Shown: positions 37,547 through 58,553 of the stretch, piece after piece
Layout: each line of letters opens with the position of its first letter
Position numbering within the stretch: position 1 is the stretch's first letter
Assembly: GCA_963735035.1 (NCBI GenBank)
Contig: CAVTJJ010000003.1
Span: 896,001 to 960,000 of the forward strand
Reading direction: 5' to 3'
Length of the DNA: 64,000 nucleotides
DNA from: an uncultured candidate division Zixibacteria bacterium
Lineage (GTDB): Bacteria > Zixibacteria > MSB-5A5 > GN15 > FEB-12
Made by a program: the position numbers and the translations under genes
Notes under the pieces: generated by a model
What the model was told of the DNA's origin: nothing
Database searches by the model: none
What the model saw: the letters and a program-made list of their open reading frames with translations, nothing else

Positions 37547-37779
37547 TGCGTTTCTCCTGTCTGATTTCTTGCACCGGGGGAATATACAAGAACCCGCGTC
37601 CACAGACTACGACTACACGAGCTTGACCTCGCTCGAATTGGGTTCGAACCTGCAAGCAACTGGCAGTAGGGGATCGCCCCGACGCGCATTGTGGCACAAT
37701 GGCTTACGGCTCATCGTGATCAAGTCATGACCGCTCGCAAACTGAGAAACTGGTGTATTCGGACCTGGCAGAAAAGAGC

Positions 37780-37811
37780 AGAGGGCCGGTAGACAATGCC
37801 ACCTGCCCTCT
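37780..37811 (-). terminator. Putative terminator after the S8 peptidase
   Basis: AGAGGGC...GCCCTCT stem followed on the minus strand by GCTCTTTT. Confidence 0.45.
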
Positions 37812-37835
37812 GTTTGTACTCTCTCGCTTATCGTA

Positions 37836-39929
37836 CTACTTCAGCAGCAACATCTTCTTCATCTGAACTACTTCGCCCGCGCTGAGACGGTATAGGTATA
37901 CGCCAGTCGAAACTGAGCTACCTTTATCGTCAGTGCCGTTCCACTCTGTCTGATACGAGCCTGCCGACATAGTCTCGTTTACCAACGTCCTCACCTTCTG
38001 GCCAATCACATTGAAGACTTCGATCGTAACCTTCGTCTGTGATGGCAGACTATATTCGATCGTGGTCGTCGGATTGAACGGATTCGGGTAATTCTGTCCC
38101 AGTACGTAGAGGGAAGGAAGGACCTGATTCGGCTCACTGACATCAAGTGTGTTCGCCAGAGCCCGGACAGCATTGATTCTGCCGCCACTTACCACCTTGC
38201 CCTGCAATTGTGTCAGGCCGTCGACTGAGTTGAATATACTCCTTCGCAAATCTGCAAACGTCGTGTTCAGGTTCTGCGAAAGAATCAGACCCGCCAGCCC
38301 GGCCACGTGAGGCGACGCCATCGAGGTACCATCTATGTATTCGTAGCTCCATTCACTCCCGCTGCCCCCACCGTTCGCGGTGATTATTACATCATCAATG
38401 TACGCTCCATCGAAACAAGTTGACGCGTCAGTGCTCAACCTGAAGCGCAGATAGACCTGCGCATAACCTTCCAGGACGGAAAGGGGGACCCGCACTGATA
38501 CGAATTGTCCGCTTGTCGTGCCTGTGCGCCCATCGATGATGCTCCACGAATACCCATCGACACAGGCGTCGACAAAAAGCCAGTCATACTGGGATTCCGT
38601 ATCGAGCCTGAGCTGAAAATCAAGGACGGGTTGACTACCAGGTGCGAAGCTGAGAGGCTTTACCAGCATCAAGCATGATTCCTGATTGTTCTGGTACGTC
38701 CCTCCCGGGCTGTCTGTTGCGCTGTGGGTGGGGCTCACGCAGGCCTCTTGAGTGAGTTGCCAGTATCCATTTGTCCACCAATTAGACCCGTCCTCCATAT
38801 TGTCCTGGAACAGGACGTTTCCGGTACTCGACGCCGGAACGGTACTGAATATTTTCACCCCCGGTGCAGCAACGTCAACGCCGATCGCCCCGTAGTTTGA
38901 AAACGAAGCCAGTCGATCATTCTTATCCGTCGCTGCCACGGTTATGACATTTTCAAGGTCAAAACTCCCCGGTGTATATGGTGTCACGTCAATGTTGACC
39001 CCATCATTTCCGGCGGCACACACGAACAGAACCCCCTTGTCACGAGCATACTTCACAGCGTCGTAGACCATCTGATCGTATCCCGGCCCGCCCCAACTGG
39101 CATTAATGATTCTGGCGCCATTGTCTACAGCGTATTTGACGGCCTTTATCAGATCGGCAGTCAAGCCGCCGTTTTCCCCCAACGCTCGAACCGCCATGAT
39201 CTTCGCTTTCCAGCAAACACCCGCTACACCTATTCCGTTGTTGCCCACCGCGGCTATGGTGCCCGCGACATGTGTGCCATGTTTGCCGGCCGCCGGGTCG
39301 TTGTCGTTTTGAACGAAATCCCAGCCATAATAGTCGTCAACGAAGCCGTTATTGTCGTCATCGACACCATTGATCGGATCATCGGCATTGACCCACATAT
39401 TCGCGGCCAGGTCTTCATGACCCCGGTAAACACCGTCATCCACAACCGCAATGACCACTTCCTCGGAACCGATAGTTACATCCCACGCCGACAGCGCTCT
39501 GATATCGGCGTTCTGCGTCCCTCGGTCGCCGCCGACCGACTGCCCTGAATTGCTCATTCCCCAAAGACTGTCAAAGTGAGCGTCGTTGGGGCGGCTGAAG
39601 TTGTGATAGATGAAGTTGTACTGTACGTACTCTACTCCGCTCTTCTGTTCCAGAGAGTTCTTCGCCTCGTCGAGTGATGAGCCATCCGGGATCCGGAGTA
39701 TGACCGCATTCATATCCGGAATTTCCTCTTTGATCGACGCGTTCAGGTCCGCCGCCATGGCGCCGCCCTGAACCATGGCGCCTCTACCCGTAAACTTGAC
39801 AATTAGCTCATTCGGGACATACTGCAACTGAGTGATCGGTCGCAATTCACCCTTCGCAGTGTCAGGACGAACTGATGCGCTCCACAGGAGGGTGAAGCTT
39901 ACGGTAACTGCAATAACATCCCTCAACAT
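37836..39929 (-). CDS. Secreted S8 (subtilisin-like) serine peptidase with inserted beta-sandwich and C-terminal FlgD-Ig/sorting-like domain
   Basis: VVDDG, HGTHVAG, AAGN, GTSMASPHVAG; QNYPNPFNP...KKMLLLK. Confidence 0.95.
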   Translation of the reverse strand: MLRDVIAVTVSFTLLWSASVRPDTAKGELRPITQLQYVPNELIVKFTGRGAMVQGGAMAADLNASIKEEIPDMNAVILRIPDGSSLDEAKNSLEQKSGVEYVQYNFIYHNFSRPNDAHFDSLWGMSNSGQSVGGDRGTQNADIRALSAWDVTIGSEEVVIAVVDDGVYRGHEDLAANMWVNADDPINGVDDDNNGFVDDYYGWDFVQNDNDPAAGKHGTHVAGTIAAVGNNGIGVAGVCWKAKIMAVRALGENGGLTADLIKAVKYAVDNGARIINASWGGPGYDQMVYDAVKYARDKGVLFVCAAGNDGVNIDVTPYTPGSFDLENVITVAATDKNDRLASFSNYGAIGVDVAAPGVKIFSTVPASSTGNVLFQDNMEDGSNWWTNGYWQLTQEACVSPTHSATDSPGGTYQNNQESCLMLVKPLSFAPGSQPVLDFQLRLDTESQYDWLFVDACVDGYSWSIIDGRTGTTSGQFVSVRVPLSVLEGYAQVYLRFRLSTDASTCFDGAYIDDVIITANGGGSGSEWSYEYIDGTSMASPHVAGLAGLILSQNLNTTFADLRRSIFNSVDGLTQLQGKVVSGGRINAVRALANTLDVSEPNQVLPSLYVLGQNYPNPFNPTTTIEYSLPSQTKVTIEVFNVIGQKVRTLVNETMSAGSYQTEWNGTDDKGSSVSTGVYLYRLSAGEVVQMKKMLLLK

Positions 39930-39966
39930 GGGTCTTATCCTTTCGGTTTATGTTCTTCTGGACATA

Positions 39967-39993
39967 AGTACCGCAGGACCCTCTGTTGTTACA
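39967..39993 (-). promoter_or_regulatory. ECF-type promoter motif copy 1 (S8 peptidase)
   Basis: TGTAAC-AACAGAGGGTCCTGC-GGTACT. Confidence 0.75.
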
Positions 39994-40287
39994 GAGATGC
40001 CGGAAGATACTGACCACCCCGAGAACGACGGTCAATCGTCATTGAAGACGGCCTTCTCAGACCCCGGCAGGCCGACGGGGGGACAGTTTGCTTGGCTGCG
40101 CGTGGCTGTGCCCGGCTCATCTGCCAGATACCGCTTTGGAAAACGAGAAAGTAATAATGAAGCCTGAATGACCGATCGGACTCCCTCTGCGTGTCAATTG
40201 AAAGAAGATCTGGAATCCGTTTATCAGACTTGAGATTTGGACAAATAGTAAGCTCGCCGCCGCTGGATTTCAGTGCTACGACAACTG

Positions 40288-41145
40288 CTATCTATCTGTT
40301 ACAAGCCTAAACGAGAATGAACTCTCATTTACATTGAGCGAATCGGCGAAGCTCTTTTCTGCCACCACAAATTGGTACGATCCATCAATGATGTTCTTTG
40401 TATCCAGGATTAGCTGAATTTTGCCCGGTACACTGTAATTGGCGAAGAGTGTGATCGGTGCTCTTTCGCGTTTCCCGGAATCAAAAAGTGAGTACTCATA
40501 ACGATTCTCACTCGATAGATGATAAAATGGCAGGTCCATGCGAACCAGAGCATCACGTTCTGTTCGCGTGACCGTAGGCACGTCGGATGATGAGCGATTC
40601 GCCTCAAGAAGTTGGAATACCTGAACGGGCACTGACTTATTATCACCGCTCGGTGCATGACCATTCGAATCGGTGAACCATCTGACGGTGGGATATGCAG
40701 CAAGCAGGAGAAGAAAGTACGCTACTGCCGGTTTGCGTAGAGGAATCACAATGTAATTCAGAACGGTCTGCCATATCGGAGCGCGATTAAGTTCCGACCT
40801 AACCGAGGCAGAGAGTTCCGTTTCAAGATCGTTCAAGAAAGCCAGATCGTAAGCGCACTTCTCGCAACTCTTCAGATGAGCTTCAATACGGCTTCGAACT
40901 TCGGGTGACAGACCGTGTCGGTTCTCATGATAGGAGGATACATCCTCTTGAGAAAGGTGACCCGCATGACCTGAAGAATTGGCTTCTGTGGCCGGCTTCT
41001 TGAGCATCCGCATGACCTTCAAGCTGTCCCGACACTCCACGCAGGCATCCAGGTGCCGCTTGACTTCCTGCGTCTCGGCCGGATCAAGATGGCCCGTGGC
41101 AAAGTCATTCAGCTTGAGCCGGATATTTTCATCTAAGCATTTCAT
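40288..41145 (-). CDS. Membrane-anchored anti-sigma factor with two zf-HC2 (ZAS) fingers
   Basis: HLDACVEC and HLKSCEKC, one TM (PAVAYFLLLLAAYP) and a C-terminal extracytoplasmic domain; follows the ECF sigma gene. Confidence 0.85.
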   Translation of the reverse strand: MKCLDENIRLKLNDFATGHLDPAETQEVKRHLDACVECRDSLKVMRMLKKPATEANSSGHAGHLSQEDVSSYHENRHGLSPEVRSRIEAHLKSCEKCAYDLAFLNDLETELSASVRSELNRAPIWQTVLNYIVIPLRKPAVAYFLLLLAAYPTVRWFTDSNGHAPSGDNKSVPVQVFQLLEANRSSSDVPTVTRTERDALVRMDLPFYHLSSENRYEYSLFDSGKRERAPITLFANYSVPGKIQLILDTKNIIDGSYQFVVAEKSFADSLNVNESSFSFRLVTDR

Positions 41146-41161
41146 GTGTCACCAACACAGA

Positions 41162-41188
41162 GGTGCCATCAGGCACCCGCCTGTTACA
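41162..41188 (-). promoter_or_regulatory. ECF-type promoter motif copy 2 (anti-sigma)
   Basis: TGTAAC-AGGCGGGTGCCTGAT-GGCACC; the -35 box overlaps the sigma stop codon. Confidence 0.7.
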
Positions 41189-41738
41189 GCAATTCTTTGA
41201 CAAAATCCAGGTTTCTTGCCCGATCCAGACACCTAGAGATGGCGGTGCTGGTGGCGTTTTTGGTCTTCTTGAGGTGATCGGCTATTTCCCGATCCGACCA
41301 TCCCTGCCGAAACTTCATGTCCAACAATTGGTTACACTTAGGGTCCAGGGCCATAAGAATATCCGTTGCCAGTTGACCATCGACCACTTGATCGTCGGTC
41401 GCAACGCCTTTCGATTCGACATAGTCCAGCGGATCGTCAGTATAACTCACTCTAGCGCTTAATCTTAACCGCCTATTGATGCGGAATCTGATGGTCTGGT
41501 AGATATAGACGTTGAATGCCGACAGCGTGTCGCCCCTGAATCGGCTTGCCCGCAAGCTGTCGAAGAGGATTTCGATCACTTCGGAGACGATCTCTTCAGG
41601 ATCTGTGTCCGAAGGTACCCCCTGGTGATACACGTACTGAGTGATCTTCTTCTTTATGATCGTGAACTGGCGACTGTCGCCCTTCAGAAAACCGTCTACA
41701 ACTAGTGTGAGTAATTGCTTGTCGTGATCGGTCTGCAT
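41184..41738 (-). CDS. ECF-subfamily RNA polymerase sigma factor
   Basis: 184 aa; region 2 (DPEEIVSEV...F..YIYQTIR) and region 4 (LDPKC.QLL.MKF.QGWSDREIA). Confidence 0.85.
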   Translation of the reverse strand: MQTDHDKQLLTLVVDGFLKGDSRQFTIIKKKITQYVYHQGVPSDTDPEEIVSEVIEILFDSLRASRFRGDTLSAFNVYIYQTIRFRINRRLRLSARVSYTDDPLDYVESKGVATDDQVVDGQLATDILMALDPKCNQLLDMKFRQGWSDREIADHLKKTKNATSTAISRCLDRARNLDFVKELL

Positions 41739-41890
41739 CTACGCCTCGACAAGGTACAATGCCTTCCGCCTGCCTGTTGTCTACTCTTTTGGAAGAGCGG
41801 TCCTGTCCCCAGAGTATAGTGGGCATCATACTCAACCACAATAACTTTCTCTGATTCGCGCCCGGCATACCTGCCATCGAGTTGAGACCA

Positions 41891-41917
41891 TGTAACAAAA
41901 AACTTCGAGCATGCACT
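41891..41917 (+). promoter_or_regulatory. ECF-type promoter motif copy 3
   Basis: TGTAAC-AAAAAACTTCGAGCA-TGCACT. Confidence 0.65.
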
Positions 41918-42077
41918 TATGATCGGTAGGAAGATTGAAACCACAGGACGAGAAGAAGCCCGGCTGATAACTATGGGAACTTAGACCGAAAATTGACCAC
42001 AAACCGTGCGACCCGCCGAATTCTGCTCTCCGACTGAGCGGGGGGATGCCCGCTCCCACCTTAGAGGTGGTCATGGT

Positions 42078-42121
42078 GCGCCCGGCCTCTCTTGAATGAG
42101 ACGGCCGGGCGCCTCCATTTT
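42078..42121 (+). terminator. GC-rich hairpin, putative terminator
   Basis: GCGCCCGGCC...GGCCGGGCGC followed by CTCCATTTT. Confidence 0.5.
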
Positions 42122-42155
42122 GGTTGGGTAAGATTCGCTGCGGGGTTCAAAACCG

Positions 42156-42182
42156 TGTAACAAAAGACCGGACCCTGGCACT
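42156..42182 (+). promoter_or_regulatory. ECF-type promoter motif copy 4
   Basis: TGTAAC-AAAAGACCGGACCCT-GGCACT. Confidence 0.75.
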
Positions 42183-42437
42183 GATAGTCAGATACAAGAT
42201 AACCGGTCGATGCCCCCGGAGTGTGTACTCCCGCGGATGTTGACAAAGAAAGAAGTTTGCATATATTTGTAAGAGGTACTACTCAACTGGAAATCATTGC
42301 CAACCATTGATAATGCAGCCCGCGTAAGGTGACAGCAGCAAATTGGCTGTGCGTCTGAGACCCCTCGGGCAATTTGGCAATACGCGTTCCGCCACAACGA
42401 AAACGAGTTGAACAAAATACAGAGGAGAAAGCGAAAT

Positions 42438-43678
42438 ATGCGCCCTACGCAGCTATTGCTTACGGCAATCATGGCGGCAACATTTCTGGTCCTTACGGGC
42501 TCGTTGTTTGCCGATCCGGTTCCTGAATACCAGAGAATACCGGAAAGTTTCACTGTCCAGGGATTCGCACTCGATAGCGCGGGATTCCCGATTCCCGATG
42601 GCGTCTATCCTGTCACGTTCACTACCTACCATGACTCTTTATGTTCGGTTCCGGTATACACAGAGACACAATCGCTCGAGATCCAGGGCGGAAGGTTTGG
42701 TTCAATTGTCTTTGGACTGAATGGCATCGGCCCCTGGCCTCGTCCATTCCATCCGACAATTGACATTTATCCGTCTCGGTACCTAAAGATATCTATTGAT
42801 GGTCAGGACATCCTGCCAATTATAGAGTTGCAGTCAGCTCCGACAGCTGTGATGGCTAGGCAGTGTTCGAGGCGATATCTTCACTTACGAAGGGGGGACG
42901 ATATTCGCCAACCAGAATCTGGATTCGTCCGGGTATGTTAAGATCGACGGTGGCGCAGATAGTTCGTCGATCGGGCTGTTCAGTCCGGGTGCAGCTGATC
43001 CAAGCGTGCTACTTTCAAACCCGAGCTCGGGGGCACCGTCTCTGACAATGGGGGAGTCCTCCGGGGGTGCAATGCATACTATGACCATGGGACCCTCGGG
43101 CATAACGTTCGCATATTCACCAAGTTGGCCGGCAGGCTGGGATACTACACTCATCTTTTCCGGTGACAAGTTGACGTGCGCCGATACAATTAGTTCAACC
43201 TCGGGGGGATTTCAGTTCCCGGATGGCACCGTTCAGACAACAGCCGCTGGTTCAGGAGGCGGCCCGTGGGAGACTTCCGGCTTGAATGTTTACGTCGATA
43301 CCTCAGGTATTGACGATTACAGTGTTGGAGTAAATACGGCCACGCCCAATAGCCCGCTTCAGGTGGCAATGGTGCCGTTGCAACGGCTTTACGAACCTTG
43401 TTGGAGCACAATTGTGACGCCTGACATCTGATCACTCCGTCGTACTTGTTTCTCCAAACGCCGGTCCAATAACGATCAGTCTGCCGACTGCGGCCGGCAT
43501 AAGCGGCCGACAATACACTATCAAGAGGTCTGCCCTCGGCCCCGCTAACAGCGTCACCATTGACGCCTTGGCTCTGAATACATCGACGGCAGCCTATCAT
43601 ACTCCCTATCGGCGCAGTGGTAAGTACGTGGTGTTGGTTAGCAACGGTTCTTACTGGTGGGTCATTGGCAACAACTAA
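42438..43678 (+). pseudogene. Secreted fibre/adhesin-like hypothetical protein, multiple frameshifts
   Basis: Signal peptide then VQGFALDSAGFPIPDGVYPVTF, then GGFQFPDGTVQTTA and VGVNTATP. The C-terminus can be rebuilt across frames as ...ISLPTAAGISGRQYTIKR...VLVSNGSYWWVIGNN*. Confidence 0.6.
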
Positions 43679-43697
43679 GACAAGGCGAAGTAGTAAG

Positions 43698-44388
43698 ATG
43701 AAACAGTTAGACTTATTAGTCGTGAGCGTCGCCGCAGTCTTGTTGCTTCTTCTTGCCTGGAGCCTGGCCACAGGTGAGAGTCAGATTGAACGCGACAGAC
43801 AGCCGAGCGAAATAGCCGAAGCTCGCTTACTGCCGGCACATGATACGTCCACAAGTTCAGATCGGAACGGAGCCGTAAGCTCCAGTGTGAATTCAGAGAT
43901 CAGCCACCCACCTGCTTCCCTTCTCACCGTCGGGCCAAAACCTCGCGGAGTCGCGAGTGCGTCCGACATCTCCATTGATTGGTGGGTGGTGGCCGCGGGA
44001 GCGGTCGACGGCAGAGGACAATCCCTTCATCTACTCGCAACAATCGGTCAGGGTGTGATTGGAGAAGGTGCGTCAAGCAAGTATCTGTTGCGTTACGGAT
44101 ACTGGGCTGCGTCGAACGGCGCTGGTGGTTGTTGCCAGGGTCGGGTGGGCGATGTCAACCAGTCAGGTAACGACGAGCCTACTATCGGCGACATTTCTAC
44201 TTTGATCGACGCCAAGTTCATAACCGGGTCGTGCGACGGGGTGATTTCGTGTTTTGCCGAAGCTGATATCAATCAGTCCGGCGGTCCTAACCCGACCTGT
44301 AATGACATCACGATTGGCGACATTTCTATCCTGATCGACTACTCTGTTCATTACGGGGCCTTCGCTTGGGCTTCATAACTGCCTGTAG
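43698..44388 (+). CDS. Secreted protein with Cys-flanked dockerin-like (paired EF-hand) domain; frameshift near the 3' end
   Basis: CCQGRVGDVNQSGNDEPTIGDISTLID...EADINQSGG...ITIGDISILIDY; the alternate frame ends LFITGPSLGLHNCL*. Confidence 0.75.
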
Positions 44389-44476
44389 ATATTGCGGCTG
44401 ATTCAAAGGCTAGTCCCAGAATTCTGATTGTTGTTGCACGACAGCTCGGCTTGCTTAAATTACCTGCTATATCAGG

Positions 44477-47400
44477 ATGATTGGCTGCGTAATCGCATCG
44501 AAATCGAGCTCCGCCGTGCTAAGACGCATCTCACAAATCTCATGCCTCATAATCTGCACTCTTGTCGCGTCAATTAGCGCGGCTCCGGAAACGGAGAAGT
44601 TGCTGACAACTGCTGACTCTCTCTTCGCGATCCAGATGTTGGACTCAGCTATTTCAGTCGGAAAAACGGCCCTGATTGCTGCCGAGCGCGACCCGCGGTC
44701 GCCCGATTCCGTAATCGCCTCCATACACTACCTGCTCGGACTGAGTCATCTCTACAAGTCCGACTTGAATGAGGCCGTTAGTCATCTCGATTCCAGCAGA
44801 ATTACCCGAGTAACCGTGTACGGTGAAGATCATCCTCTCGTGGCGGATTGCGACTATTATCTCGGCGCCGCTCTAATGCAATTCGGCCAGTTTGATCTAG
44901 CCGAACAACACTATGCCAAAGCGCTGTCTGTCCGAGAGGCTGCCTACGGACCCGACCATGAGCAGGTGGCCGCCACCCTCGTAGGATACTCGTCGCTTTA
45001 TGCCTACATGGGTCGCTATGACCGAACGGAAATGCTAGTCCAGCGTTTGCTCGGGATCCAGGAGAGAAATCCGAATATTCCCACGGCACAGGTCGTGAAA
45101 GCGCTGATCCTCCTGGCCGGAGTTAAGCTGGACTCCGGCCGATTTAGGGACGCAGAACAATATTACCGTCGCGCCCTGACCCTCTTGGAGAATACTTCAA
45201 CGACCGACGCGTTTACCGAAGGTTCAGTACATTGGGGGCTGGGAAAAGCACTTCTGTTGCAGGGTGATCTGCCACAGGCGGAGAGTCATTACTTGAAAGC
45301 CATTGATCTGACCCGCGCCACTCAGGGCGAAGGCAGCTACCAGATCGGGGCTCTGAAATCGGAATTGGGGCGTCTCTACACCATGCGCCTTCAGTACTCC
45401 GAGGCTGAAACTCTCCTGACTGAGGCGCTCTCCCAGCTGCGCGCATCCATTGGTGAAGACAATGAATTCGTGGCCTATTGCCATCAATGGCTTTCCCGGA
45501 TCTACGCGTATCAGGGAAGATACGCGATGGCGCAGCGGACCGCCGAAGAAGCTGTCAAGTCAGCCGGAGCTACCTTCGGAAGAGACCATCACGAAACTGC
45601 TCAGGTGATGAACTGGCTGGCGGAAGTTCACTTAATGGCAGGCAATTACCAAATTGCCGATTCGATCGCTACCGCGGCCACGGCCATCATAGTCAGTGAG
45701 CTCGGCGAGACCCACCCATATCTCGTCGATGGTTTCAACATTATCGGGTATGCCAGGATGCAACTCGGCGACATGATAAGCGCCGCCAAGTACTTTGAAA
45801 GGTCTCTCGCAATCGGTCTGGCGGCAGGCGGCCAAAATCATCCCTCGGTCGCGGCCACTTATGAGGTCCTTAGCGAACTGCGCCGCCGTACAGGTGAACG
45901 GGAACTGGCGCTTGACATGTCGCGCCGGGCGGTACTGGGTCGTCGAAATAATCTGCGTCTGGGGTGTGCCGTCATGTCCGAGCAGGAGGCTTTAGACTAT
46001 GCCTTTCTGGTCAAGCGTGCCCTGAACCTTTACTTGTCCTCTCTGCGCGACTTGCCCAACCCGAATCCTGAAATTGCAAAGGCCGCTGCCGAGTTGATCG
46101 CCAATACCAAGGGACTGGTGACCGACGAAATGTTGCTGCGATCATCTTCGCTTCGCACTGACACAAGTTCAGCAGAGAAAGTCTTGAAGGACACCGTTGA
46201 TGCGGCCCGGTTCGAATTGGCTTCGCTGTTCGGCAACTTTTCCAGTGAAGTTGACCAGTCCACCTACCGAAGCAGGCTTGATTCCTTGTCGAGCCATGTG
46301 CAGGCCCTGGAGGCACGACTCGCCCGCCAGGTAACTTCGGATGTTGGCCTCCGTACTAGCGATTCAATCAGTATTGACCGATTGCAAAAAGAACTGAAAC
46401 CTGATCAGGTGGCCGTCGAATACCTCCGATACACCTATAAAGATCCGCGAAACCAGAATGCGGAAGATCGATACCTGGTGCTGTTATTGAATCCCGCTTC
46501 CGAGACCCGTGTAATTGACTTGGGAACCGCGGAACTGATTGATAAAGCTGTGGGTCGTTACCGGAAGCACATATCTGACCTCGCCGCCGCCGGGCAACCT
46601 CCCGACCAAGAAGCCCTTGACGATTATCGCCGGCTTGCCGGAGATCTCTATACTACTGTATGGCGTCCCCTGGAACCATACCTGGGTGCGAGCCGGATGA
46701 TCTTCATCTCGACTGATGGATCTCTGAATCTGTTGTCATTTGCGGGCCTTCCTTGCTCCGATAATGAATACCTGATTGAAAAATACCGCCTTCACTACTT
46801 GTCCACTTCGCGCGATCTTTGTCGCTCCCCCCATCAGAGTGCCACCGGGCGCAGTCTGGTACTAATCGGGGACCCGGATTTTGGCCTCGCAGTTCAGCCA
46901 AGCCAGGTGGACCCGGAATCGGGTTCATCGGTCGACCCAGCTCTCGGGTGTGGCAGCATTGATCGCAGTCGTCTATCGCCGTTGCCGGGAACTCGCCGCG
47001 AGGTAGAACGAATCGCTCGTCTGTGGCGACAGCAGGTTTCGGACAGCGTTACCGAGTTGACAGGCGCAGGAGCCACAGAAGGTGCTTTCAGAAAATTAGC
47101 TCCGTCAGCCACCACCGTTCACATCGCTACTCATGGGTACCTGGCCGCCGATAGCTGCTTCAGGATCGAAGCTTCCGCACCGAGTCTGGCCAATGAAGAT
47201 TTCTTTACCCGCAACCCGCTTTTGCTTTCCGGCTTGTTCCTGGCAGGAGCGGCCGCGCCGGGAAAGTCCCGGGTTCGTTTTGATAGCCGCGATGGGATGC
47301 TCTCTGCCGAGGAAGTGGCCACCTTGGACCTTCACAAAGTTGGACGGGTGGTACTATCGGCCTGTGAATCGGGGCTTGGAACGGTGGAATCCGGCGAGGG

Positions 47401-47647
47401 TGTCTATGGCCTGAGAAGGGCTTTTCAAATGGCCGGTGCCGGCACGGTCATCAGTTCACTCTGGAAGGTCCCGGACAACACTACGGCTCAGTTCATGGCG
47501 CGGTTGTATTCGACTGACAACGAGCCTGTCCCGGCAGCCATGCAATCGTCTTGCCTCGACATGCTGTCCCAACTACGCCGTCGTGGCCAGCCGGACCATC
47601 CATTTCTATGGGCTCCGTTCATAAGTATCGGTGACTGGCGGGAGTAG
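44477..47647 (+). CDS. TPR-CHAT (caspase/HetF-like) cysteine protease
   Basis: N-terminal hydrophobic segment; kinesin-light-chain-like TPRs (GEDHPLVA, GPDHEQVA); catalytic HIATHG and LSACESG; SLWKV; HPFLWAPF. Confidence 0.95.
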   Translation: MIGCVIASKSSSAVLRRISQISCLIICTLVASISAAPETEKLLTTADSLFAIQMLDSAISVGKTALIAAERDPRSPDSVIASIHYLLGLSHLYKSDLNEAVSHLDSSRITRVTVYGEDHPLVADCDYYLGAALMQFGQFDLAEQHYAKALSVREAAYGPDHEQVAATLVGYSSLYAYMGRYDRTEMLVQRLLGIQERNPNIPTAQVVKALILLAGVKLDSGRFRDAEQYYRRALTLLENTSTTDAFTEGSVHWGLGKALLLQGDLPQAESHYLKAIDLTRATQGEGSYQIGALKSELGRLYTMRLQYSEAETLLTEALSQLRASIGEDNEFVAYCHQWLSRIYAYQGRYAMAQRTAEEAVKSAGATFGRDHHETAQVMNWLAEVHLMAGNYQIADSIATAATAIIVSELGETHPYLVDGFNIIGYARMQLGDMISAAKYFERSLAIGLAAGGQNHPSVAATYEVLSELRRRTGERELALDMSRRAVLGRRNNLRLGCAVMSEQEALDYAFLVKRALNLYLSSLRDLPNPNPEIAKAAAELIANTKGLVTDEMLLRSSSLRTDTSSAEKVLKDTVDAARFELASLFGNFSSEVDQSTYRSRLDSLSSHVQALEARLARQVTSDVGLRTSDSISIDRLQKELKPDQVAVEYLRYTYKDPRNQNAEDRYLVLLLNPASETRVIDLGTAELIDKAVGRYRKHISDLAAAGQPPDQEALDDYRRLAGDLYTTVWRPLEPYLGASRMIFISTDGSLNLLSFAGLPCSDNEYLIEKYRLHYLSTSRDLCRSPHQSATGRSLVLIGDPDFGLAVQPSQVDPESGSSVDPALGCGSIDRSRLSPLPGTRREVERIARLWRQQVSDSVTELTGAGATEGAFRKLAPSATTVHIATHGYLAADSCFRIEASAPSLANEDFFTRNPLLLSGLFLAGAAAPGKSRVRFDSRDGMLSAEEVATLDLHKVGRVVLSACESGLGTVESGEGVYGLRRAFQMAGAGTVISSLWKVPDNTTAQFMARLYSTDNEPVPAAMQSSCLDMLSQLRRRGQPDHPFLWAPFISIGDWRE

Positions 47648-47666
47648 GAGCGTCTGATGTGATTTA

Positions 47667-48758
47667 TCATTGTGCCGCCGCCACGGCTTCCAACAGTTGA
47701 GTGATTACCGGCGTCTCGAACGGCTCAAGGCCCTGTTCCTTTTCTATCAGGTAGGTACACAGCGGCTTTACATCGCCATTGGCATGATACCGATGAGGAG
47801 CCATAGGCACACCGCTTCGGCATAGTAGCAGATACCGACATTCACGGCACCATCGATTCACTGAATCACGATGCATCTTGCGGTTATACGCAAAGGCATC
47901 AGGGTTATTCCAGATATCGGCGATGGGGGTAACGCGGATATTCCCTTCGATGAATTCATCAGTCATCTCTGCGGCACCTTTCACTTCACCGGATGGTCCA
48001 ACCGCCAGGTAGTGTACTCCGGATCCATCGCCCAAAAACGGGCGGCCCCCGCGCAGTTTCATTCCCTTAGTTCCATAGTGGCCTATCTCATCGGTCGCGC
48101 TAATTGTGATGCGAGTATCGCTCTGCATTTCAATGATCTTATCAATCATCGTGGTGTATTCTTCCCTGGTCAGGACCATGTCTGCATGGGAGGCCATGCG
48201 GCCGGTTGGCTGAATCATTTGAATGCGCCAGTCTGCACACCCGGCATCGATTAGCGCACTTTTGATAGCCTCAAGCCGATCGAGGTTCATTCTGGAAACA
48301 GCCGTAACTGCCGCAACCTTCAGACCGGGCACAGAACTGGCGAGCTTGATTGCCGCCATCGCCCGATCATACGCATCTGGACAACAGCGGATCATATTGT
48401 GTGTCTCGCGGTCTCCATCGACACTGATGCCTAGTGAGTTAACTCCAGCGTCGACAAGTGACTGGAGTCGAGACGGTGACAGCAAGAGACCATTGGTTAT
48501 CAAACCTATACGCGCCTCTTTGCTTGATATATACTTGATAACCTCAATAAGGTCCGGACGTATCAATGGTTCACCGCCGGTCAAACAGAACTGGCGACAA
48601 CCGAGGTCAAGAAGATCGTCGATCATCATCTTGGCCTCCGCCGTGGTCAGTTCATCTGATCTGGGCTTGGCGGACGCATTGCCGCAATGCTTGCATCGTA
48701 AGTTGCAGCCGCGTGTAACTTCCCACACTGCAACAGTTAGCTTGAAATCTGAGTTCAT
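47667..48758 (-). CDS. Radical SAM/SPASM-domain protein, probable peptide maturase
   Basis: WEVTRGCNLRCKHC, TGGEP, ISVDG, EGNIR, CRECRYLLLC; GAAAGGA RBS before the ATG at 48758. Confidence 0.9.
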   Translation of the reverse strand: MNSDFKLTVAVWEVTRGCNLRCKHCGNASAKPRSDELTTAEAKMMIDDLLDLGCRQFCLTGGEPLIRPDLIEVIKYISSKEARIGLITNGLLLSPSRLQSLVDAGVNSLGISVDGDRETHNMIRCCPDAYDRAMAAIKLASSVPGLKVAAVTAVSRMNLDRLEAIKSALIDAGCADWRIQMIQPTGRMASHADMVLTREEYTTMIDKIIEMQSDTRITISATDEIGHYGTKGMKLRGGRPFLGDGSGVHYLAVGPSGEVKGAAEMTDEFIEGNIRVTPIADIWNNPDAFAYNRKMHRDSVNRWCRECRYLLLCRSGVPMAPHRYHANGDVKPLCTYLIEKEQGLEPFETPVITQLLEAVAAAQ

Positions 48759-48780
48759 TGTCTTCCTTTCGAGTGAGAAT

Positions 48781-48803
48781 AGGGGGCAGAGGATCTGCCC
48801 CCT
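48781..48803 (-). terminator. Perfect 10-bp hairpin between the peptide and rSAM genes
   Basis: AGGGGGCAGA-GGA-TCTGCCCCCT. Confidence 0.7.
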
Positions 48804-48810
48804 CGGCAGA

Positions 48811-48900
48811 CTAGAGTATGATCCAAGGTCTCGGTATGAGGATGTGCAGAATATTGAGACCCGCATTGATGATAGTGGTTGAGGTAATGATCGGGATCAT
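48811..48900 (-). CDS. 29-aa Ile-rich peptide, candidate RiPP precursor (MIPIITSTTIINAGLNILHILIPRPWIIL)
   Basis: AAGGAG 7 nt before the ATG; TAG at 48811-48813; lies between a promoter motif and the rSAM gene; too short for the ORF track. Confidence 0.75.
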   Translation of the reverse strand: MIPIITSTTIINAGLNILHILIPRPWIIL

Positions 48901-48958
48901 GGCGTTGCTCCTTGTTTGAGTTGTTGGTTATGTTGGTTTTCGTTTTCATTTGTCCATT

Positions 48959-48985
48959 AGTGCCACCTACCCTCCGGTTGTTACA
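48959..48985 (-). promoter_or_regulatory. ECF-type promoter motif copy 5 (peptide-rSAM)
   Basis: TGTAAC-AACCGGAGGGTAGGT-GGCACT. Confidence 0.75.
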
Positions 48986-49166
48986 GACTTCCTGCTCACC
49001 TTCTAATTATGCGTAACTTATTGTGTATCAACAGAAACCGCCCACGAGAGGGATAAGCGCCTTCGGGTGCTCTGGCTTACCGCCAGTATCAAGGTTATCG
49101 ATGGCCAGCCCGACCAGCCGCGTTTGTTACAGCCTTTCACATAGGATTCCCCCGGAAACGAAGAGA

Positions 49167-49190
49167 GGTCGCCCCCGAATGGGGGCGACC
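49167..49190 (-). terminator. Terminator-like hairpin after the FN3 gene
   Basis: GGTCGCCCCC-N4-GGGGGCGACC followed on the minus strand by TCTCTTCGTTT. Confidence 0.65.
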
Positions 49191-49228
49191 CGTTGATGAA
49201 GTCTATCGATTCTTTATGTAGAACCGCA

Positions 49229-49963
49229 CTATTGCACGGTAATCTCGACTGTGTTACTGACCGGTGACTCCCCGGCAGCGTTCAATGCGACCACCCGGTA
49301 CCGATACTTTCCACCTAGAACCACACTGCGATCCGTGGCTACGACGGCATCTATTGCAGCTTCATGCGTCAGAGCGGTCCATCCCCCAAATCTGGACGAT
49401 AACGAGTTCCAAACGGCGCGATCGATACGAAAACCGGACTCACACTCCGAGTTGTCGTTCCATTTGAGGATAACACCGTAGCCGATAGCTGGGAATCTGT
49501 CCGGCCTCAGAATCGCAGCAGTCAAACCGTCGGGCGCAACCGGGACGGCCCAATTGCATATACTTGCTTCGTTCGAGAACTCAGAGGCGCCCACATCATT
49601 GATCGCGCGTACCCGGAAATCGTAGCCAAAGAATGAAGGCGCATTAACGGTGCATTCAGTAGAGTCGGGATCGACTGTGGTAATTCGTTCCCAGCTTAAC
49701 GGATGCTCGGGGATAGCGAGACCACCAAGGCGCTGAATCTCGAAACCGGTCTCATTGTAGGAATTATCGCTCCAGGTGATGTGAGCGGTCGTCTCAGAAA
49801 CACGGGTGGCGACCAGGGTCGATGGCGCAGCCGGCACTATGACAGGCGGGTTGGGTTCGGGGCGGGGATCCGGTTCAGGCGCGACTGAATTGTCGGAGCA
49901 GGACATCATCGCAACTCCTAGCGTCAGCACAACACAAGCAGTGATAAACATTCTCTGGAACAT
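49229..49963 (-). CDS. Lipoprotein with two fibronectin type III domains
   Basis: Lipobox MMSC; Pro-rich linker; twice W.DNS..E.GF.I.R...RV.A.N..G.S..SN. Confidence 0.85.
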   Translation of the reverse strand: MFQRMFITACVVLTLGVAMMSCSDNSVAPEPDPRPEPNPPVIVPAAPSTLVATRVSETTAHITWSDNSYNETGFEIQRLGGLAIPEHPLSWERITTVDPDSTECTVNAPSFFGYDFRVRAINDVGASEFSNEASICNWAVPVAPDGLTAAILRPDRFPAIGYGVILKWNDNSECESGFRIDRAVWNSLSSRFGGWTALTHEAAIDAVVATDRSVVLGGKYRYRVVALNAAGESPVSNTVEITVQ

Positions 49964-50010
49964 AATAGCCTCCTTTGTTTGGTTGATTCCAGTTTCATTT
50001 TCTGATCATC

Positions 50011-50037
50011 AGTGCCCCGAGCGCCTTGTTTGTTACA
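50011..50037 (-). promoter_or_regulatory. ECF-type promoter motif copy 6 (FN3 lipoprotein)
   Basis: TGTAAC-AAACAAGGCGCTCGG-GGCACT. Confidence 0.75.
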
Positions 50038-50211
50038 GTTCTCCCTGAAGTTGTGCGCGTATCCGATACAAGATCACTGCTGACCGAGATCAGGACCAAG
50101 AGACAGCAGCAGAAATACATCGGAACGCTGGTTACTGACAGGGAAAGCATCTAATCCCCTGCGCGCGCTTGATTGGATTGATTCGTGACAGACCAGAAAT
50201 ACTAAAGCACC

Positions 50212-50264
50212 AGCGGCAGGTCACTTCATGGTTTGAACTAAGTTCACCATGAAGGCCTGCCGCT
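50212..50264 (-). terminator. Long imperfect hairpin after the secreted protein gene
   Basis: AGCGGCAGG..CTTCATGGT...ACCATGAAG.CCTGCCGCT. Confidence 0.5.
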
Positions 50265-50280
50265 TGGCGTGACGAGATAT

Positions 50281-50895
50281 TTAGTATTTTGTGAAGGACC
50301 CCATCAACGAGCTGATTTGTCGATCCGAAGACGACAACTCGGCCATCGAGTAAAATCCGTTCGAACAGAAGAAGGCGATCGCGCGTTTACCGTTACCGGG
50401 ACCAATGAAAGTACCATAGTAACCATAGACTTGCTCGGATTCTGTCGTATAAGCACCGATACCTCCGCCGTTCCAAAGCAGGGCGGCGTCAGGTTCTTTG
50501 TAATAAGTAAAATTGCCGTTGGCATCGAAGGTGAGTTGTCTTAGACCTGATTCCACGCTGTTGCCAATCTTGCCGTCGCCGGTATAACTCTTGTCGCCCC
50601 CGGTCACGTATTGTCCACTCAAACCACCAATAGTAACCACATAGCTCACCCCGGTGCCGTCGTGTGAAACGGTGAAGCTGTTGGGTCCACTCTGCGTGAC
50701 AGTTACTTGAGCTCCGGTGAAGTCCCAAATGAGTTTCGCGCCGCCACTTTGTGCTCCGGACGCTCCACCGCTCCCGGTACCGCCGCTTCCGTAGGGACTT
50801 TGAGCTTGTGAGTGCCCTGCAACAAACAGAGATGATCCTAGAAAAACTGCGAACACCGCGAGAAGTGCCCCTGAGTTAACAATTGACGTATTCAT
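50281..50895 (-). CDS. Secreted Gly/Ser-rich hypothetical protein
   Basis: Signal peptide; GSGGTGSGGASG linker; AAGGAG RBS. Confidence 0.75.
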   Translation of the reverse strand: MNTSIVNSGALLAVFAVFLGSSLFVAGHSQAQSPYGSGGTGSGGASGAQSGGAKLIWDFTGAQVTVTQSGPNSFTVSHDGTGVSYVVTIGGLSGQYVTGGDKSYTGDGKIGNSVESGLRQLTFDANGNFTYYKEPDAALLWNGGGIGAYTTESEQVYGYYGTFIGPGNGKRAIAFFCSNGFYSMAELSSSDRQISSLMGSFTKY

Positions 50896-50936
50896 TCTTG
50901 TTTCTCCTTTGACTCATGTTCTTTGCTCTGCCCAGG

Positions 50937-50963
50937 AGTGCCGAGTCGACCGGTTCTGTTACA
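50937..50963 (-). promoter_or_regulatory. ECF-type promoter motif copy 7
   Basis: TGTAAC-AGAACCGGTCGACTC-GGCACT. Confidence 0.75.
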
Positions 50964-51235
50964 ATCCGGCTGCAGGTTCCGGCTGACAGAGGAGATTGTA
51001 GTAGTGCCGGGGGACGGTGGACTTGTAACTCAAGCGGGAGAAGAAGTAAGAAATTCAACGCACCCCTCGTGCCACAGCATCTTGTTGCGAGACAATAGCG
51101 TGAAAGCGAGAAGGACGGAGTTGCTGGCTCGCGGGGTGGGCACAATAGCTTGAGAGTCTTTGCCACCAAGTCTTGACCGTTTGTTTCAGTCAATTGGGGA
51201 CCTGCGAAGTAGTGCAAACAGCCCCTCTTGTATCC

Positions 51236-51252
51236 TTTATACATTCTTTATA
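51236..51252 (+). promoter_or_regulatory. Putative KdpE binding site
   Basis: TTTATA-CATTC-TTTATA (11-bp period) upstream of kdpF, like the T-rich E. coli KdpE site. Confidence 0.6.
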
Positions 51253-51384
51253 TCCGCGCCCTTCTTCCTTATTCACCCAGATTGTGAAACTCGCCGTTCT
51301 TATTCGACAGGTGGCGGTGTCATCCCGGCTACCCCAACCCTGATGCTGCAGTTCGCCCCTCGATTTGAAATAGAAAGGAATGCC

Positions 51385-51471
51385 ATGTCGTTTGCGTTTG
51401 CGGGCATCATAGCTCTGGCGCTATTGGCCTATCTCGTATACGCCGTGTTCAATCCGGAGAGATTCAAGTGA
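51385..51471 (+). CDS. kdpF: K+-transporting ATPase subunit F
   Basis: MSFAFAGIIALALLAYLVYAVFNPERFK with AAAGGA RBS, before kdpA. Confidence 0.9.
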   Translation: MSFAFAGIIALALLAYLVYAVFNPERFK

Positions 51472-51480
51472 GGTCGCCTA

Positions 51481-53172: not shown

Positions 53173-53180
53173 GGGAACCT

Positions 53181-55860: not shown

Positions 55861-58553
55861 TGGTTGAATCATTTCGGCCCGATCCGGACGCTATCCTGGC
55901 GGCCATCCAGAAACGGGAAGCTCATGCCCACGCGGGGAAACTTCGCGTGTTTTTTGGCATGTCGGCCGGTGTCGGAAAGACTTTCGCCATGCTCCGCGCC
56001 GCTCAGGACCGCTTGCGAGAGGGTATAGATGTAGTCGTAGGGACTGTCGACACTCACGGACGAACCGAGACCGAAGCGTTGCTCCAGGGTCTATCGATCA
56101 TTCCCCGCAAGATTATCACTTACCGCGACGTGGCTCTCAGCGAAATGGACCTCGATGCCGTGATCGCCCGGCGACCGAAACTTGTTCTCGTCGACGAACT
56201 GGCTCATACCAACGTGCCCGGATCACGCCACACCAGACGATGGCAGGATGTACTGGAACTCTTGGATGGCGGAATCGATGTCTATACTACTCTCAACGTC
56301 CAACATGTTGAAAGTCGCAAGGAATATGTGGAGCAGATTACCGGCATCACGGTGCGCGAGACAGTGCCTGATACAATCCTCCAGCGCGCCGCCCAGATTA
56401 TTCTGGTGGATCTTACTCCTGCCGAGCTCTTGCAGCGACTGAAAGACGGCAAGGTATACCTCGGCGACAAGGCTGAAGCCGCCTCCAGGAATTTCTTCCA
56501 AGAGGATAGGCTGACCGCACTTCGCGAAATCGCCCTTCGGTTCACGGCCGAAGCTGTGGACAACGAACTGCAAGATCTCACGGCGGCCCACGAAGGTACG
56601 GGCTCATGGAAAGCATCGGAACGTCTGATGGTCGCAGTAAGTCACAGCCCGCACTCCGAAGATTTGATTCGAACCACGCGCCGTCTGGCTTTCAGTCTCG
56701 ACGCGCCATGGTTGGCGATTCATGTCGATACCGGTAATAATCTGGGCGACAGTGACCGTCAGCAGCTGGCCCGGAATCTCAACCTGGTACGTGAACTCGG
56801 TGGCGAAGTTGTCAGTCTGACCGATGTCGATATTGTGGAGGCCCTCATTCAAACCGCGCGACAACGCAGCGTGACACAGCTTGTTATCGGCCACCCGGTA
56901 AAGCGCCGATTGCGGGATATTCTCGGCGGTGGGTCGCTCCTCGACCGACTGGCGCTGCATGCCACAACATTTGATATCCACATCCTCAAGCCCGTGCGGG
57001 ACACGAGTTCTTCTACCCACCGACGATCCTTCGTGCATTTCGAGGCCTCGCCTGTCCAATACTGGTTCATGCTTTGGGTCATTATTGCCGCCGCTGGACT
57101 TAGTGCCCTGCTTCTCACGGCAATTGGGTACCGAGCCGTAGGCTTTGTATTTCTTCTGGGTGTGTTGGTGGTGAGTCTGTTTGTATCCGTTGGGCCGACC
57201 ATCTTTGCGGCGCTCCTGGCCGCTCTTACCTGGGATTACTTCTTCATACCGCCTCGGGGGACTTTTCATATTTCCGAGCCGGAAGATATGGCCATGTGTT
57301 TGGCGCTGCTGGTTGGCGCGGCTGTAACCGGTACTCTCACCAGCCGCATTCGTCGGCGCGAGCGATTGCTGCGCTCACGCGAACAGAGAACCAATGCGCT
57401 GTATCAGATTGCCAGCGCCATATCTGCCGCCAGTGATCGAAAGGAATTTGCCTCGGCCGTCAGAGACAATCTTGCCCACCAGGTGCCGGGCGAATTCGGC
57501 ATCGCGCTCAAGAACGTTGTCGGAACCCTGGAGCACATACCGTCGGGAGGCCGAGATGTCTGGATGACTGCCGAAAAGGAATGGACCGTGGCTACATGGG
57601 CGTTCCAACACGGCAAGGCCGCCGGCTGGTCAACCGATACCCTGGCGTCGGCGGTAGCCCGTTATGTGCCTCTGATTGGTCCCGGGGAAATCACGGGTGT
57701 GCTGGCCTATAAACCGCGAGAGAATGCGTATCTCAGTCAGGATGAAGAGAATCTCCTCATGACGGCTTCCCGCCTGCTTGCGGTGGCCGCCGAGCGAGAA
57801 CTGTTACAGGAACGTTCACGAAAGTTGCACCAGGTCGCCGAATCGGAACGGTTGTATCAGACAATTCTCAACACCGTGTCACACGAGTTGAGAACCCCTT
57901 TGACCGCGATCATCGGCAATGCGTCGGCGCTTGGCAATGATCAGATTGCGACCGATCCGGCCAGTCGACGGCAATTATCCACTGAGATCATCGCCAATGC
58001 CGAACGACTCAACCGCGTAGTTTCTAATCTTCTCGATATGTCGCGCCTCAGTTCCGGCAAATTGGTTCTCAAGCAGGATTGGCATGACTTGAGCGATCTG
58101 ATTTCAGTCACGCTCGACGCGCACAAGACCGCCTTGGCCGACCACCAGGTCCTGGTTCGGATCGCCGATCCGTTGCCGCTTGTCCGTATTGACTTTCAGC
58201 TGCTCCAACAGGCACTCGCCAACCTTCTGCTCAATGCCGGCATCTACACCCCACCCGGGGCCCAGATTGTTGTTAGCGCATGCGTCGTTGGGCGAGAAAT
58301 CGAGCTGACTGTTTCCGACAACGGTCCCGGCCTGCCGCCAGAAGCTATTCCACATCTGTTCGATATGTTCTATCGAGTTCCGGGATCAAAGGCCGGTGGT
58401 GCTGGAATTGGGTTGGCGATCACCAAAGGAATTGTGGAAGTTCACGGCGGCACTGTGACAGTCAGAAACATCTCCACCGGCGGGGCATGCTTTGCCATCA
58501 AATTGCCCCTCGAAGTGCAGCCCCAAATACCGAGTGGCAGGAGTGAATTATGA
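55857..58553 (+). CDS. kdpD: Sensor histidine kinase KdpD
   Basis: GMSAGVGKT, DELAHTN, USP domain, 4 TMs, GAF, SHELRTPL. Confidence 0.96.
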   Translation: MMVESFRPDPDAILAAIQKREAHAHAGKLRVFFGMSAGVGKTFAMLRAAQDRLREGIDVVVGTVDTHGRTETEALLQGLSIIPRKIITYRDVALSEMDLDAVIARRPKLVLVDELAHTNVPGSRHTRRWQDVLELLDGGIDVYTTLNVQHVESRKEYVEQITGITVRETVPDTILQRAAQIILVDLTPAELLQRLKDGKVYLGDKAEAASRNFFQEDRLTALREIALRFTAEAVDNELQDLTAAHEGTGSWKASERLMVAVSHSPHSEDLIRTTRRLAFSLDAPWLAIHVDTGNNLGDSDRQQLARNLNLVRELGGEVVSLTDVDIVEALIQTARQRSVTQLVIGHPVKRRLRDILGGGSLLDRLALHATTFDIHILKPVRDTSSSTHRRSFVHFEASPVQYWFMLWVIIAAAGLSALLLTAIGYRAVGFVFLLGVLVVSLFVSVGPTIFAALLAALTWDYFFIPPRGTFHISEPEDMAMCLALLVGAAVTGTLTSRIRRRERLLRSREQRTNALYQIASAISAASDRKEFASAVRDNLAHQVPGEFGIALKNVVGTLEHIPSGGRDVWMTAEKEWTVATWAFQHGKAAGWSTDTLASAVARYVPLIGPGEITGVLAYKPRENAYLSQDEENLLMTASRLLAVAAERELLQERSRKLHQVAESERLYQTILNTVSHELRTPLTAIIGNASALGNDQIATDPASRRQLSTEIIANAERLNRVVSNLLDMSRLSSGKLVLKQDWHDLSDLISVTLDAHKTALADHQVLVRIADPLPLVRIDFQLLQQALANLLLNAGIYTPPGAQIVVSACVVGREIELTVSDNGPGLPPEAIPHLFDMFYRVPGSKAGGAGIGLAITKGIVEVHGGTVTVRNISTGGACFAIKLPLEVQPQIPSGRSEL

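Follow-up and report, generated by a model that had tools for sequence, protein, structure and literature searches.

Proteases with a caspase-like CHAT domain have been connected with sigma factor control in Myxococcus xanthus and in type III-E CRISPR (clustered regularly interspaced short palindromic repeats) systems. DdvS of M. xanthus is a sigma factor of the extracytoplasmic function (ECF) type whose partner, DdvA, is described as a fusion of an anti-sigma factor with a TPR-CHAT region, for which a role of the CHAT domain as its own site-1 protease has been proposed but not shown (PMC11506125); the mapped DdvS promoter is given as GTAA-n16-CGT (PMC6061681). Csx29 is reported to cut a sigma inhibitor in trans (PMC10028731), and another CRISPR-linked CHAT cascade has been described (bioRxiv 10.1101/2023.06.23.546230). 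Here we describe an island within 64,000 nucleotides (nt) of DNA from an uncultured Zixibacteria bacterium (GenBank assembly GCA_963735035.1, contig CAVTJJ010000003.1, positions 896,001 to 960,000), hereafter the window, in which an ECF sigma factor, a membrane anti-sigma factor, and a separate TPR-CHAT protease are encoded among seven copies of a motif, TGTAACA-N14-GGCACT, that is very probably the −35/−10 promoter of that sigma factor. The preliminary description of this DNA had proposed the sigma regulon, which is partly supported; the CHAT/anti-sigma core, the wiring of the circuit, and the site on the sigma stop codon were not part of it.

As in DdvS/DdvA (PDB 8rw5, 8rot, and 8rlz), an ECF sigma factor is combined with a membrane anti-sigma factor of the zinc-binding anti-sigma (ZAS) type and a predicted extracytoplasmic TPR-CHAT part with a His-Cys dyad, the promoters are clustered locally with GTAA in the same n16 register, and the CHAT model finds its best fold match in DdvA. 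The two systems differ, however, in that the CHAT protease here is a separate exported protein in all loci examined, the anti-sigma factor combines two ZAS units with a small Ig domain, and the −10 box reads GG(C/T)ACT where that of DdvS is given as CGT. DdvS drives its own operon, whereas no site stands in front of this sigma gene, and the targets here are exported surface proteins, with no CRISPR or cyclic oligonucleotide-based antiphage signaling system (CBASS) genes seen, unlike the DdvS/DdvA defense island. Because fusion, autoregulation, and defense output were each looked for and not found, we conclude that the system works like DdvS/DdvA, as a split version, without being a member.

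The type III-E Csx29/Csx30/CASP-sigma system (PMC10028731, PMC9729208) is similar in that a TPR-CHAT protease acts in trans on a sigma inhibitor, but it is described as cytoplasmic, RNA triggered, and cutting after Met or Leu, whereas here both the protease and its candidate site are predicted to be extracytoplasmic and a CRISPR effector is absent. Members of ECF54 (PMC7826278, supplement) also lie near a subtilase and a TPR-CHAT gene, but this group is listed from Actinobacteria only, without an anti-sigma factor and with a GTATCAG/CTCC promoter, and the present sigma factor does not belong to it. TGTAAC is likewise part of the predicted −35 boxes of ECF120, ECF231, and ECF235 (PMC7826278), and ECF231 also has a one-helix, zinc-binding anti-sigma factor; the −10 boxes of these groups differ, and in the examined part of the supplement no CHAT partner is mentioned for them and the string GCACT does not occur. 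A literature search on split sigma/anti-sigma/CHAT systems, on Zixibacteria, and on this wiring, with most subscription journals outside its coverage, returned only DdvA/DdvS and the CRISPR-linked systems. CRISPR-free caspase/anti-sigma/sigma signaling may be the subject of a preprint on Lysobacter, which the search did not return.

The split arrangement makes the question posed for DdvA (PMC11506125), whether a CHAT domain acts as a site-1 protease, directly testable: the enzyme is a protein of its own, the substrate is small and has a predicted site at Arg184, natural loss cases exist, and the promoter is sharp enough for a reporter. If our proposal is true, no caspase-like site-1 protease would have been assigned a defined envelope substrate before this one, which is present in dozens of Zixibacteria.

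Promoter motif and sigma factor

All seven motif copies initially described are present, and they are the only such sites in the 3.6-Mb host genome. Four are exact, with no exact match in 100 shuffles, and at up to two mismatches the window has nine matches against a mean of 0.73 in shuffles. The distance between TGTAACA and GGCACT is 14 nt, rather than the 15 nt first reported, which applies only if the first box is taken as TGTAAC, and the spacers differ in sequence among all copies. TGTAACA occurs 144 times in the genome, and requiring a 14-nt spacer and a second box with no more than one mismatch leaves these seven, all inside one 11-kb stretch and within 10 kb of the sole copy of the sigma gene; each of the remaining nine spacer lengths between 10 and 19 nt yields zero to two matches. 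With a matrix refined on relatives, the same seven are the top ranks of the genome at 20.5 to 25.3 bits, the next best scoring 17.6 bits. All are intergenic or on a stop codon. Two further candidates in the window, at 44412..44438 and 57782..57808 (both minus strand), have two mismatches, near chance level, and were not accepted as sites.

Five copies, all on the minus strand, precede co-oriented starts: that of an S8 protease by 37 nt (39967..39993), the anti-sigma factor by 16 nt (41162..41188, site B), a 29-codon open reading frame (ORF) by 58 nt (48959..48985), an FN3 lipoprotein by 47 nt (50011..50037), and a Gly-rich protein by 41 nt (50937..50963). The proximity thus holds, with gaps of 16 to 58 nt in place of the 17 to 59 nt given earlier. 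On the plus strand, the fibre-dockerin-CHAT genes had been assigned one site and have two, at 41891..41917 (site A, which faces a structured leader and points away from where the sigma gene starts) and 42156..42182; they lie 521 and 256 nt, respectively, from the start of the fibre gene, which is itself in pieces, and the same tandem pair is present in a relative, G282. (Genomes are designated G and loci of relatives L, G000 being the host.) All seven window sites have the trailing N-(A/C)-T-(G/A) that was proposed as part of the motif; 36 sites of relatives do not conserve it, and it was dropped from the consensus.

Conservation with the sigma gene across loci, at fixed direction, position, and spacer, is what assigns the motif to the local sigma factor. 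Among the 284 other genomes of the phylum, 12 encode close homologues of the sigma factor (E < 1e-27) and another 21 encode distant ones; metagenomes contributed five more loci. A matrix trained on the seven window sites only, at a threshold of 12 bits, finds site A (away from the sigma gene, no more than 350 nt from its start) in 12 of the 17 close loci and site B (co-oriented, at the sigma 3′ end) in 13, bearing out the expected enrichment next to sigma homologues; the opposite strand at the 3′ end gives 0/17, sites directed at the sigma gene 0/17, and spacers of 13 or 15 nt 0 to 1 of 17. In 17 distant loci the same matrix finds site A six times, site B five times, and no site toward the sigma gene. 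Over 349 kb of orthologous loci, a 14-nt spacer gives 36 sites and spacers of 12, 13, 15, and 16 nt give 2, 2, 5, and 0, respectively. The consensus from the loci of relatives is TGTAACA(A/G)-N13-GG(C/T)ACT, a promoter consensus gained for an uncultured phylum. A strict pattern, partly shaped on relatives' sites, matches 70 times in 285 genomes: 6 in the host, 18 in the 12 close-sigma genomes, 6 in seven genomes with a distant sigma, and 40 in the other 265. At least one match is present in 9 of the 12 close-sigma genomes versus 34 of those 265, although kin are not independent.

We considered whether the boxes could be functionless relics of local duplication, as the signs of damage in the island (the fibre gene in pieces, a radical SAM protein without conserved residues) might suggest. 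The spacers all differ, however, and the boxes stay in place between genomes whose sigma proteins are just 38 to 55% identical; the scan of orthologues with the window matrix largely refutes this explanation, and its probability is next to nil. It is also highly improbable that another sigma factor reads the motif, or that it is a transcription factor operator. TGTAACA is nearly palindromic, at least six further ECF-like genes are present in the genome, including two within cytoplasmic CHAT modules, and region 4.2 of the sigma factor is unusual, but direction and spacer of the motif are fixed, it occurs only in the island, and it moves with this sigma factor across six families; no sites at 17 bits or above lie near the two other CHAT modules, and the cassette showed no further regulator gene.

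Several observations weigh against assigning the motif to this sigma factor. At threshold, site B is missing in G203, G048, and G144, site A in G061, and both in G283; G223, G216, and G004 have a distant sigma factor with a CHAT neighbor and no site at threshold; the group designated f5 shares the motif despite a different sigma region 4.2; and the shaping of the strict pattern on relatives' sites tempers its counts. All the same, the comparison strongly supports the view that the local sigma factor reads the motif as a promoter of ECF type. Near-perfect sites also occur on other contigs, before exported-protein genes (L084:8770 in G277, L086:25 in G273, and L087:2019 in G092), and no sigma homologue was found in G277.

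The sigma factor (41184..41738, minus strand) is a divergent protein of 184 amino acids, single copy in the host genome, with 28 homologues. It has regions 2 and 4 only and scores just above the TIGR02937 cut-off (43.1 against 42.9 bits), without Pfam matches and with weak matches to solved ECF sigma factors (SigL and one other). An adjacent anti-sigma factor with ZAS units and a membrane helix, and a bipartite promoter with a rigid spacer and AAC in the −35 box, agree with its predicted ECF nature. Positive autoregulation is usual, although not universal, where an ECF sigma factor is paired to an anti-sigma factor of class I, yet a site facing the sigma gene within 350 nt is present in 0 of 34 loci. 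A sigma-70-like promoter instead precedes the gene, TTGTGG-17-TATACT at 41813..41841 (minus strand), and 14 of 17 orthologous loci have the pattern TTGNNN-16/18-TANNNT upstream of their sigma gene, against 0 of 17 on the reversed strand. From such a housekeeping promoter, low and constant amounts of sigma and anti-sigma factor would likely be made, with the sigma factor held by the ZAS units at the membrane, as in related families.

The −35 core of the anti-sigma promoter, site B, is the TAA stop codon of the sigma gene in the window and in nine close loci. In G276, G273, G267, and G282 this TAA has become TAC and the sigma factor is extended by 8 to 16 codons, and the site remains 550 to 559 nt from the sigma start; site B is thus kept independently of the stop codon. 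Site positions predict that free sigma factor would raise exported surface proteins, CHAT, and, through the stop-codon promoter, anti-sigma factor, but not more sigma factor. The circuit is thereby predicted to be a nonautoregulated ECF system with built-in negative feedback: activation would raise targets and inhibitor but not the sigma factor, giving a bounded, self-terminating response. Methods searching upstream of the sigma gene would miss this promoter, which came to light here only through inspection of the sigma stop codon and the divergent strand. We note that L032:11730-16028 (G273) has a second sigma/anti-sigma/CHAT trio inside the operon of the first's site A, possibly a cascade.

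The leader behind site A folds at −69.8 kcal/mol, a value without a shuffle control, and a structured stretch of 200 nt between the two plus-strand sites (41920-42135), with a strong hairpin at its end, is a possible small RNA or attenuator. Rfam gave no matches across 36500-52000, and only close relatives have an element in common in the leaders that follow site A. A sigma-70-type promoter, TTGACA-16-TATATT (42240..42267, plus strand; 11 of 12 consensus positions), may provide basal expression of the CHAT operon; TTGACA-16/17-TANNNT occurs in 5 of 20 leaders behind divergent sites, this one included. A scan of the whole island for sigma-70 patterns showed no overall excess, with 10 found and 10.3 expected.

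Anti-sigma factor and TPR-CHAT protease

The anti-sigma factor (40288..41145, minus strand) has two tandem ZAS units, one membrane helix (residues ~132-156), and an outer Ig-like beta-sandwich. It matches Pfam zf-HC2, with ZAS matches to RsiW, ChrR, and DdvA; the model has a predicted local distance difference test (pLDDT) score of 88.6, and the fold of the outer domain comes from a fold search, whereas an Atlas search with this domain gave only unnamed clusters. The TPR-CHAT protease (44477..47647, plus strand; Pfam CHAT 7e-62) starts with a hydrophobic, export signal-like segment, as do 19 of 20 CHAT proteins, from which export is predicted on hydropathy only. Its His882/Cys963 dyad is intact and is invariant in 20/20, and the best fold matches of its CHAT model are DdvA, separase, and Csx29. 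The window copy lacks about 20 loop residues at ~46900-46970 (CHAT residues 807-831), where the loop of most orthologues has an Arg-containing motif, a possible self-processing site.

A TPR-CHAT gene is present in the examined DNA around 23 of 25 full-length anti-sigma genes, mostly tail to tail, the misses being a 4.6-kb contig and L089. Among 40 further homologues, the best scoring of about 110 listed matches with full-length proteins favored, 35 have TPR-CHAT nearby, and in the five misses the examined stretch ends within 3.6 kb. The conserved core, as read from these neighborhoods, is the sigma factor, the tandem-ZAS membrane anti-sigma factor, and a separately exported TPR-CHAT protease, with variable exported proteins as targets. 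Neither of the two congeneric genomes (77% and 100% complete) yielded the cassette, it is patchy over six families, and insertion sequence or recombinase-like neighbors, recognized by eye, lie beside it in some relatives; for these reasons it is probably mobile, with different targets gathered in each genome. The host also encodes, at C3:776-790 kb, two modules of a cytoplasmic sigma factor, a short zinc anti-sigma factor, and TPR-CHAT, one with a subtilase, and the anti-sigma factors of both have a Val-Arg-(Gly/Gln) motif ahead of a beta domain.

Arg184 of the anti-sigma factor, in the loop after the first strand of the outer domain, is a candidate CHAT cut site. Arg is present at the aligned site in all 25 full-length anti-sigma factors and in all 40 further homologues (65/65). 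In the first 25, P6 is Leu, Ile, or Val in 25, P4 is Glu in 21, and P1′ is Ser, Gly, or Ala in 22, and a small residue follows the Arg in 34 of the 40. One full-length anti-sigma factor, in G154, lacks the Arg, and its genome, 97% complete, has no CHAT match; three anti-sigma factors of 135 to 146 amino acids without helix or outer domain have no CHAT gene on their contigs, with CHAT genes elsewhere in these genomes. These short, soluble proteins (L027-L028 in G048, L034 in G119, and L035 in G144) belong to the same sigma clade. A Ser/Thr kinase gene takes the tail-to-tail position of CHAT in G048 and lies in the divergent operon in G119.

In the proposed mechanism, the exported TPR-CHAT protease, also made at a basal level, would sense an outside cue through its TPR arm and cut or grip the outer domain at Arg184, after which an intramembrane protease would complete release of the sigma factor; we give these two steps, taken jointly, an even chance. 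Cutting of the anti-sigma factor by CHAT is likewise put at about even. The more specific proposal, that the stand-alone exported TPR-CHAT is a dedicated Arg-directed site-1 protease acting in trans in a self-resetting rather than self-amplifying circuit, is a tentative one that falls short of even, and the explanation as a whole, combining promoter, switch, and CHAT gating, is somewhat better than even.

Some observations count against cleavage at Arg184 or against CHAT as the gate. Separases recognize an ExxR motif (PMC12609080), and the P4 Glu that gives the site this look is present in 21 of 25 close but only 5 of 40 distant anti-sigma factors; a general separase-like ExxR rule was therefore rejected. 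Lys670 of Csx29 is said to stand in for the Arg-binding Asp2151 of separase (PMC9729208), and the residue aligned with it here, in a weak alignment (E 0.1), is Ala1004, with an invariant Asp1000 four residues before it. With Arg invariant, Glu rare in distant members, and Ala at the Asp position, the candidate substrate does not fit the separase type. L089 keeps the Arg without a CHAT gene within 16.8 kb, and the cases of joint loss are few, one genome for the Arg and one or two truncation events (G048 and G144 are sisters).

The Arg loop might alternatively dock in or on CHAT as a pseudosubstrate or sensor contact, much like securin, with release by another protease, a reading that we regard as unlikely but worth weighing. 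The loop is modeled at pLDDT 84 to 95 inside the folded Ig domain rather than as a disordered linker, chagasin-type cysteine protease inhibitors are among the top fold matches of the anti-sigma factor (with low TM-scores of 0.4 to 0.5), and the Arg-binding Asp of separase is not kept. The invariant dyad and the small P1′-like residue after the Arg speak for cutting instead, as does Csx29, a TPR-CHAT protein reported to cut a sigma inhibitor (PMC10028731). That CHAT is just one exported output acting on other substrates, with a structural Arg, appears improbable: the window CHAT gene closes a unit that two sites precede and lies 3.3 kb away from the anti-sigma gene, and L089 has the Arg without a nearby CHAT, but CHAT is kept while other outputs vary among genomes, stands mostly tail to tail with the anti-sigma gene and not behind a site, and is absent wherever the outer domain or the Arg has been lost.

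Exported targets and the radical SAM branch

Of the 36 sites in relatives, 12 precede the anti-sigma gene, 16 a protein with a hydrophobic N terminus, 3 other ORFs, and 5 nothing. Hydrophobic N termini are thus found in 16 of 19 non-anti-sigma genes behind sites, against a background of 118/244 by the same lax test; with a CHAT gene accompanying 23 of 25 full-length anti-sigma genes, this upholds the suggestion that the regulon links proteolytic signaling to exported proteins. Families among 32 selected neighboring proteins of relatives include S74-tipped fibres, FG-GAP, dockerin, and FN3 proteins, and beta-barrels. The claim that unrelated genes form one regulon is supported for the fibre and FN3 genes, which recur as targets, whereas the S8, Gly-rich, and radical SAM genes were seen behind the motif only in the host genome. 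In the host, the targets of the mobile cassette would be the S8, FN3, Gly-rich, and radical SAM genes.

The S8 gene (37836..39929, minus strand; Peptidase_S8 1e-57) codes for an exported subtilisin-family protease with a prodomain, Asp, His, and Ser motifs, and a C-terminal domain of the FlgD/type IX secretion system type, and is a local target. The fibre-like gene (42439..43678, plus strand) codes for an exported protein in three frames with about five indels, breaks that may reflect decay or assembly error, and has homologues in G092 and G144, fibre genes that likewise follow the motif. It is followed by a gene for an exported protein (43698..44378, plus strand) with no Pfam match, whose C-terminal repeat is common in the host genome and which, without Pfam support, we take to be dockerin-like. 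FN3 proteins related in type to the FN3 lipoprotein (49229..49963, minus strand) also lie behind the motif in G061 and L089; a terminator-like hairpin (49166-49191) follows the gene, and just past it is a degenerate eighth motif copy (49105-49131, minus strand) with an intact first box. The Gly-rich exported protein (50281..50895, minus strand) belongs to no known family and has no match in Pfam, NCBIfam, PADLOC, or Atlas. PADLOC gave only generic matches for eight window proteins, and a phage defense role was rejected on this gene content and that of the relatives' neighborhoods, without CRISPR or CBASS genes seen.

The radical S-adenosylmethionine (SAM)/SPASM protein (47667..48758, minus strand) belongs to a splicease-type family present in 82 of 285 genomes and encoded elsewhere beside X-Tyr-Gly (XYG) peptides. 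Peptides with Tyr-Gly motifs are described as the signature of spliceotides (PMC11414181, PMC11626197), and related loci have Cys-rich peptides with a terminal Tyr-Gly motif in 15 of 16 cases, three such Tyr-Gly peptides lying at C2 of the host. Unlike the described PlpX, RhaX, and RcsX pathways (PMC11414181, PMC11626197), the island has no XYG peptide and no partner radical SAM gene, and four SPASM cysteines are changed. The window protein is at most 44% identical to any match among 5.8 billion proteins and 40 to 44% identical to enzymes beside Leu/Cys/Met-Tyr-Gly peptides. At columns conserved in 24 relatives it keeps 87 and changes 39; seven conserved cysteines are kept and four replaced (C230T, C244D, C262A, and C317V), leaving an incomplete set of radical SAM and SPASM ligands, and a pocket-like stretch (220-227) is also changed. 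By the general SPASM pattern, the four are presumably exactly the ligands of auxiliary cluster I, with those of the SAM cluster and cluster II remaining. Because the losses match one whole auxiliary cluster, the sequence suggests altered function rather than random decay, although this may be a dying gene.

Upstream of the radical SAM gene is a GC-rich hairpin (48781..48803, minus strand) and then the putative 29-codon hydrophobic ORF (48811..48900, minus strand), which has a ribosome-binding site and neither Tyr-Gly nor Cys. Its kinship with the family precursors was rejected, 153 of 182 scored shuffles scoring as well, and in 24 related radical SAM loci the motif precedes neither the radical SAM gene nor the 29-codon ORF. 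The peptide-modifying branch of the regulon as originally drawn is weak in view of these results and of the four lost cysteines, and it is quite doubtful that a splicease-derived enzyme, having lost one auxiliary cluster, does new chemistry on the Trp-ended 29-residue peptide. Elsewhere in the phylum (L118-L133), and at C2:66.7-70.1 kb in the host, one to three Cys-rich Tyr-Gly precursors stand ahead of two radical SAM genes, and this phylum-wide peptide pathway looks like an undescribed type of spliceotide with a second maturase.

Genes split by single-base indels occur at 32322-34509 (a response regulator and a sensor kinase) and at 42439-44378 (the fibre gene and probably the end of the dockerin-like gene), and these may be assembly errors. 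The right border of the island is formed by kdpFABC-kdpD potassium uptake genes (51372-58553), recognized from their translations.

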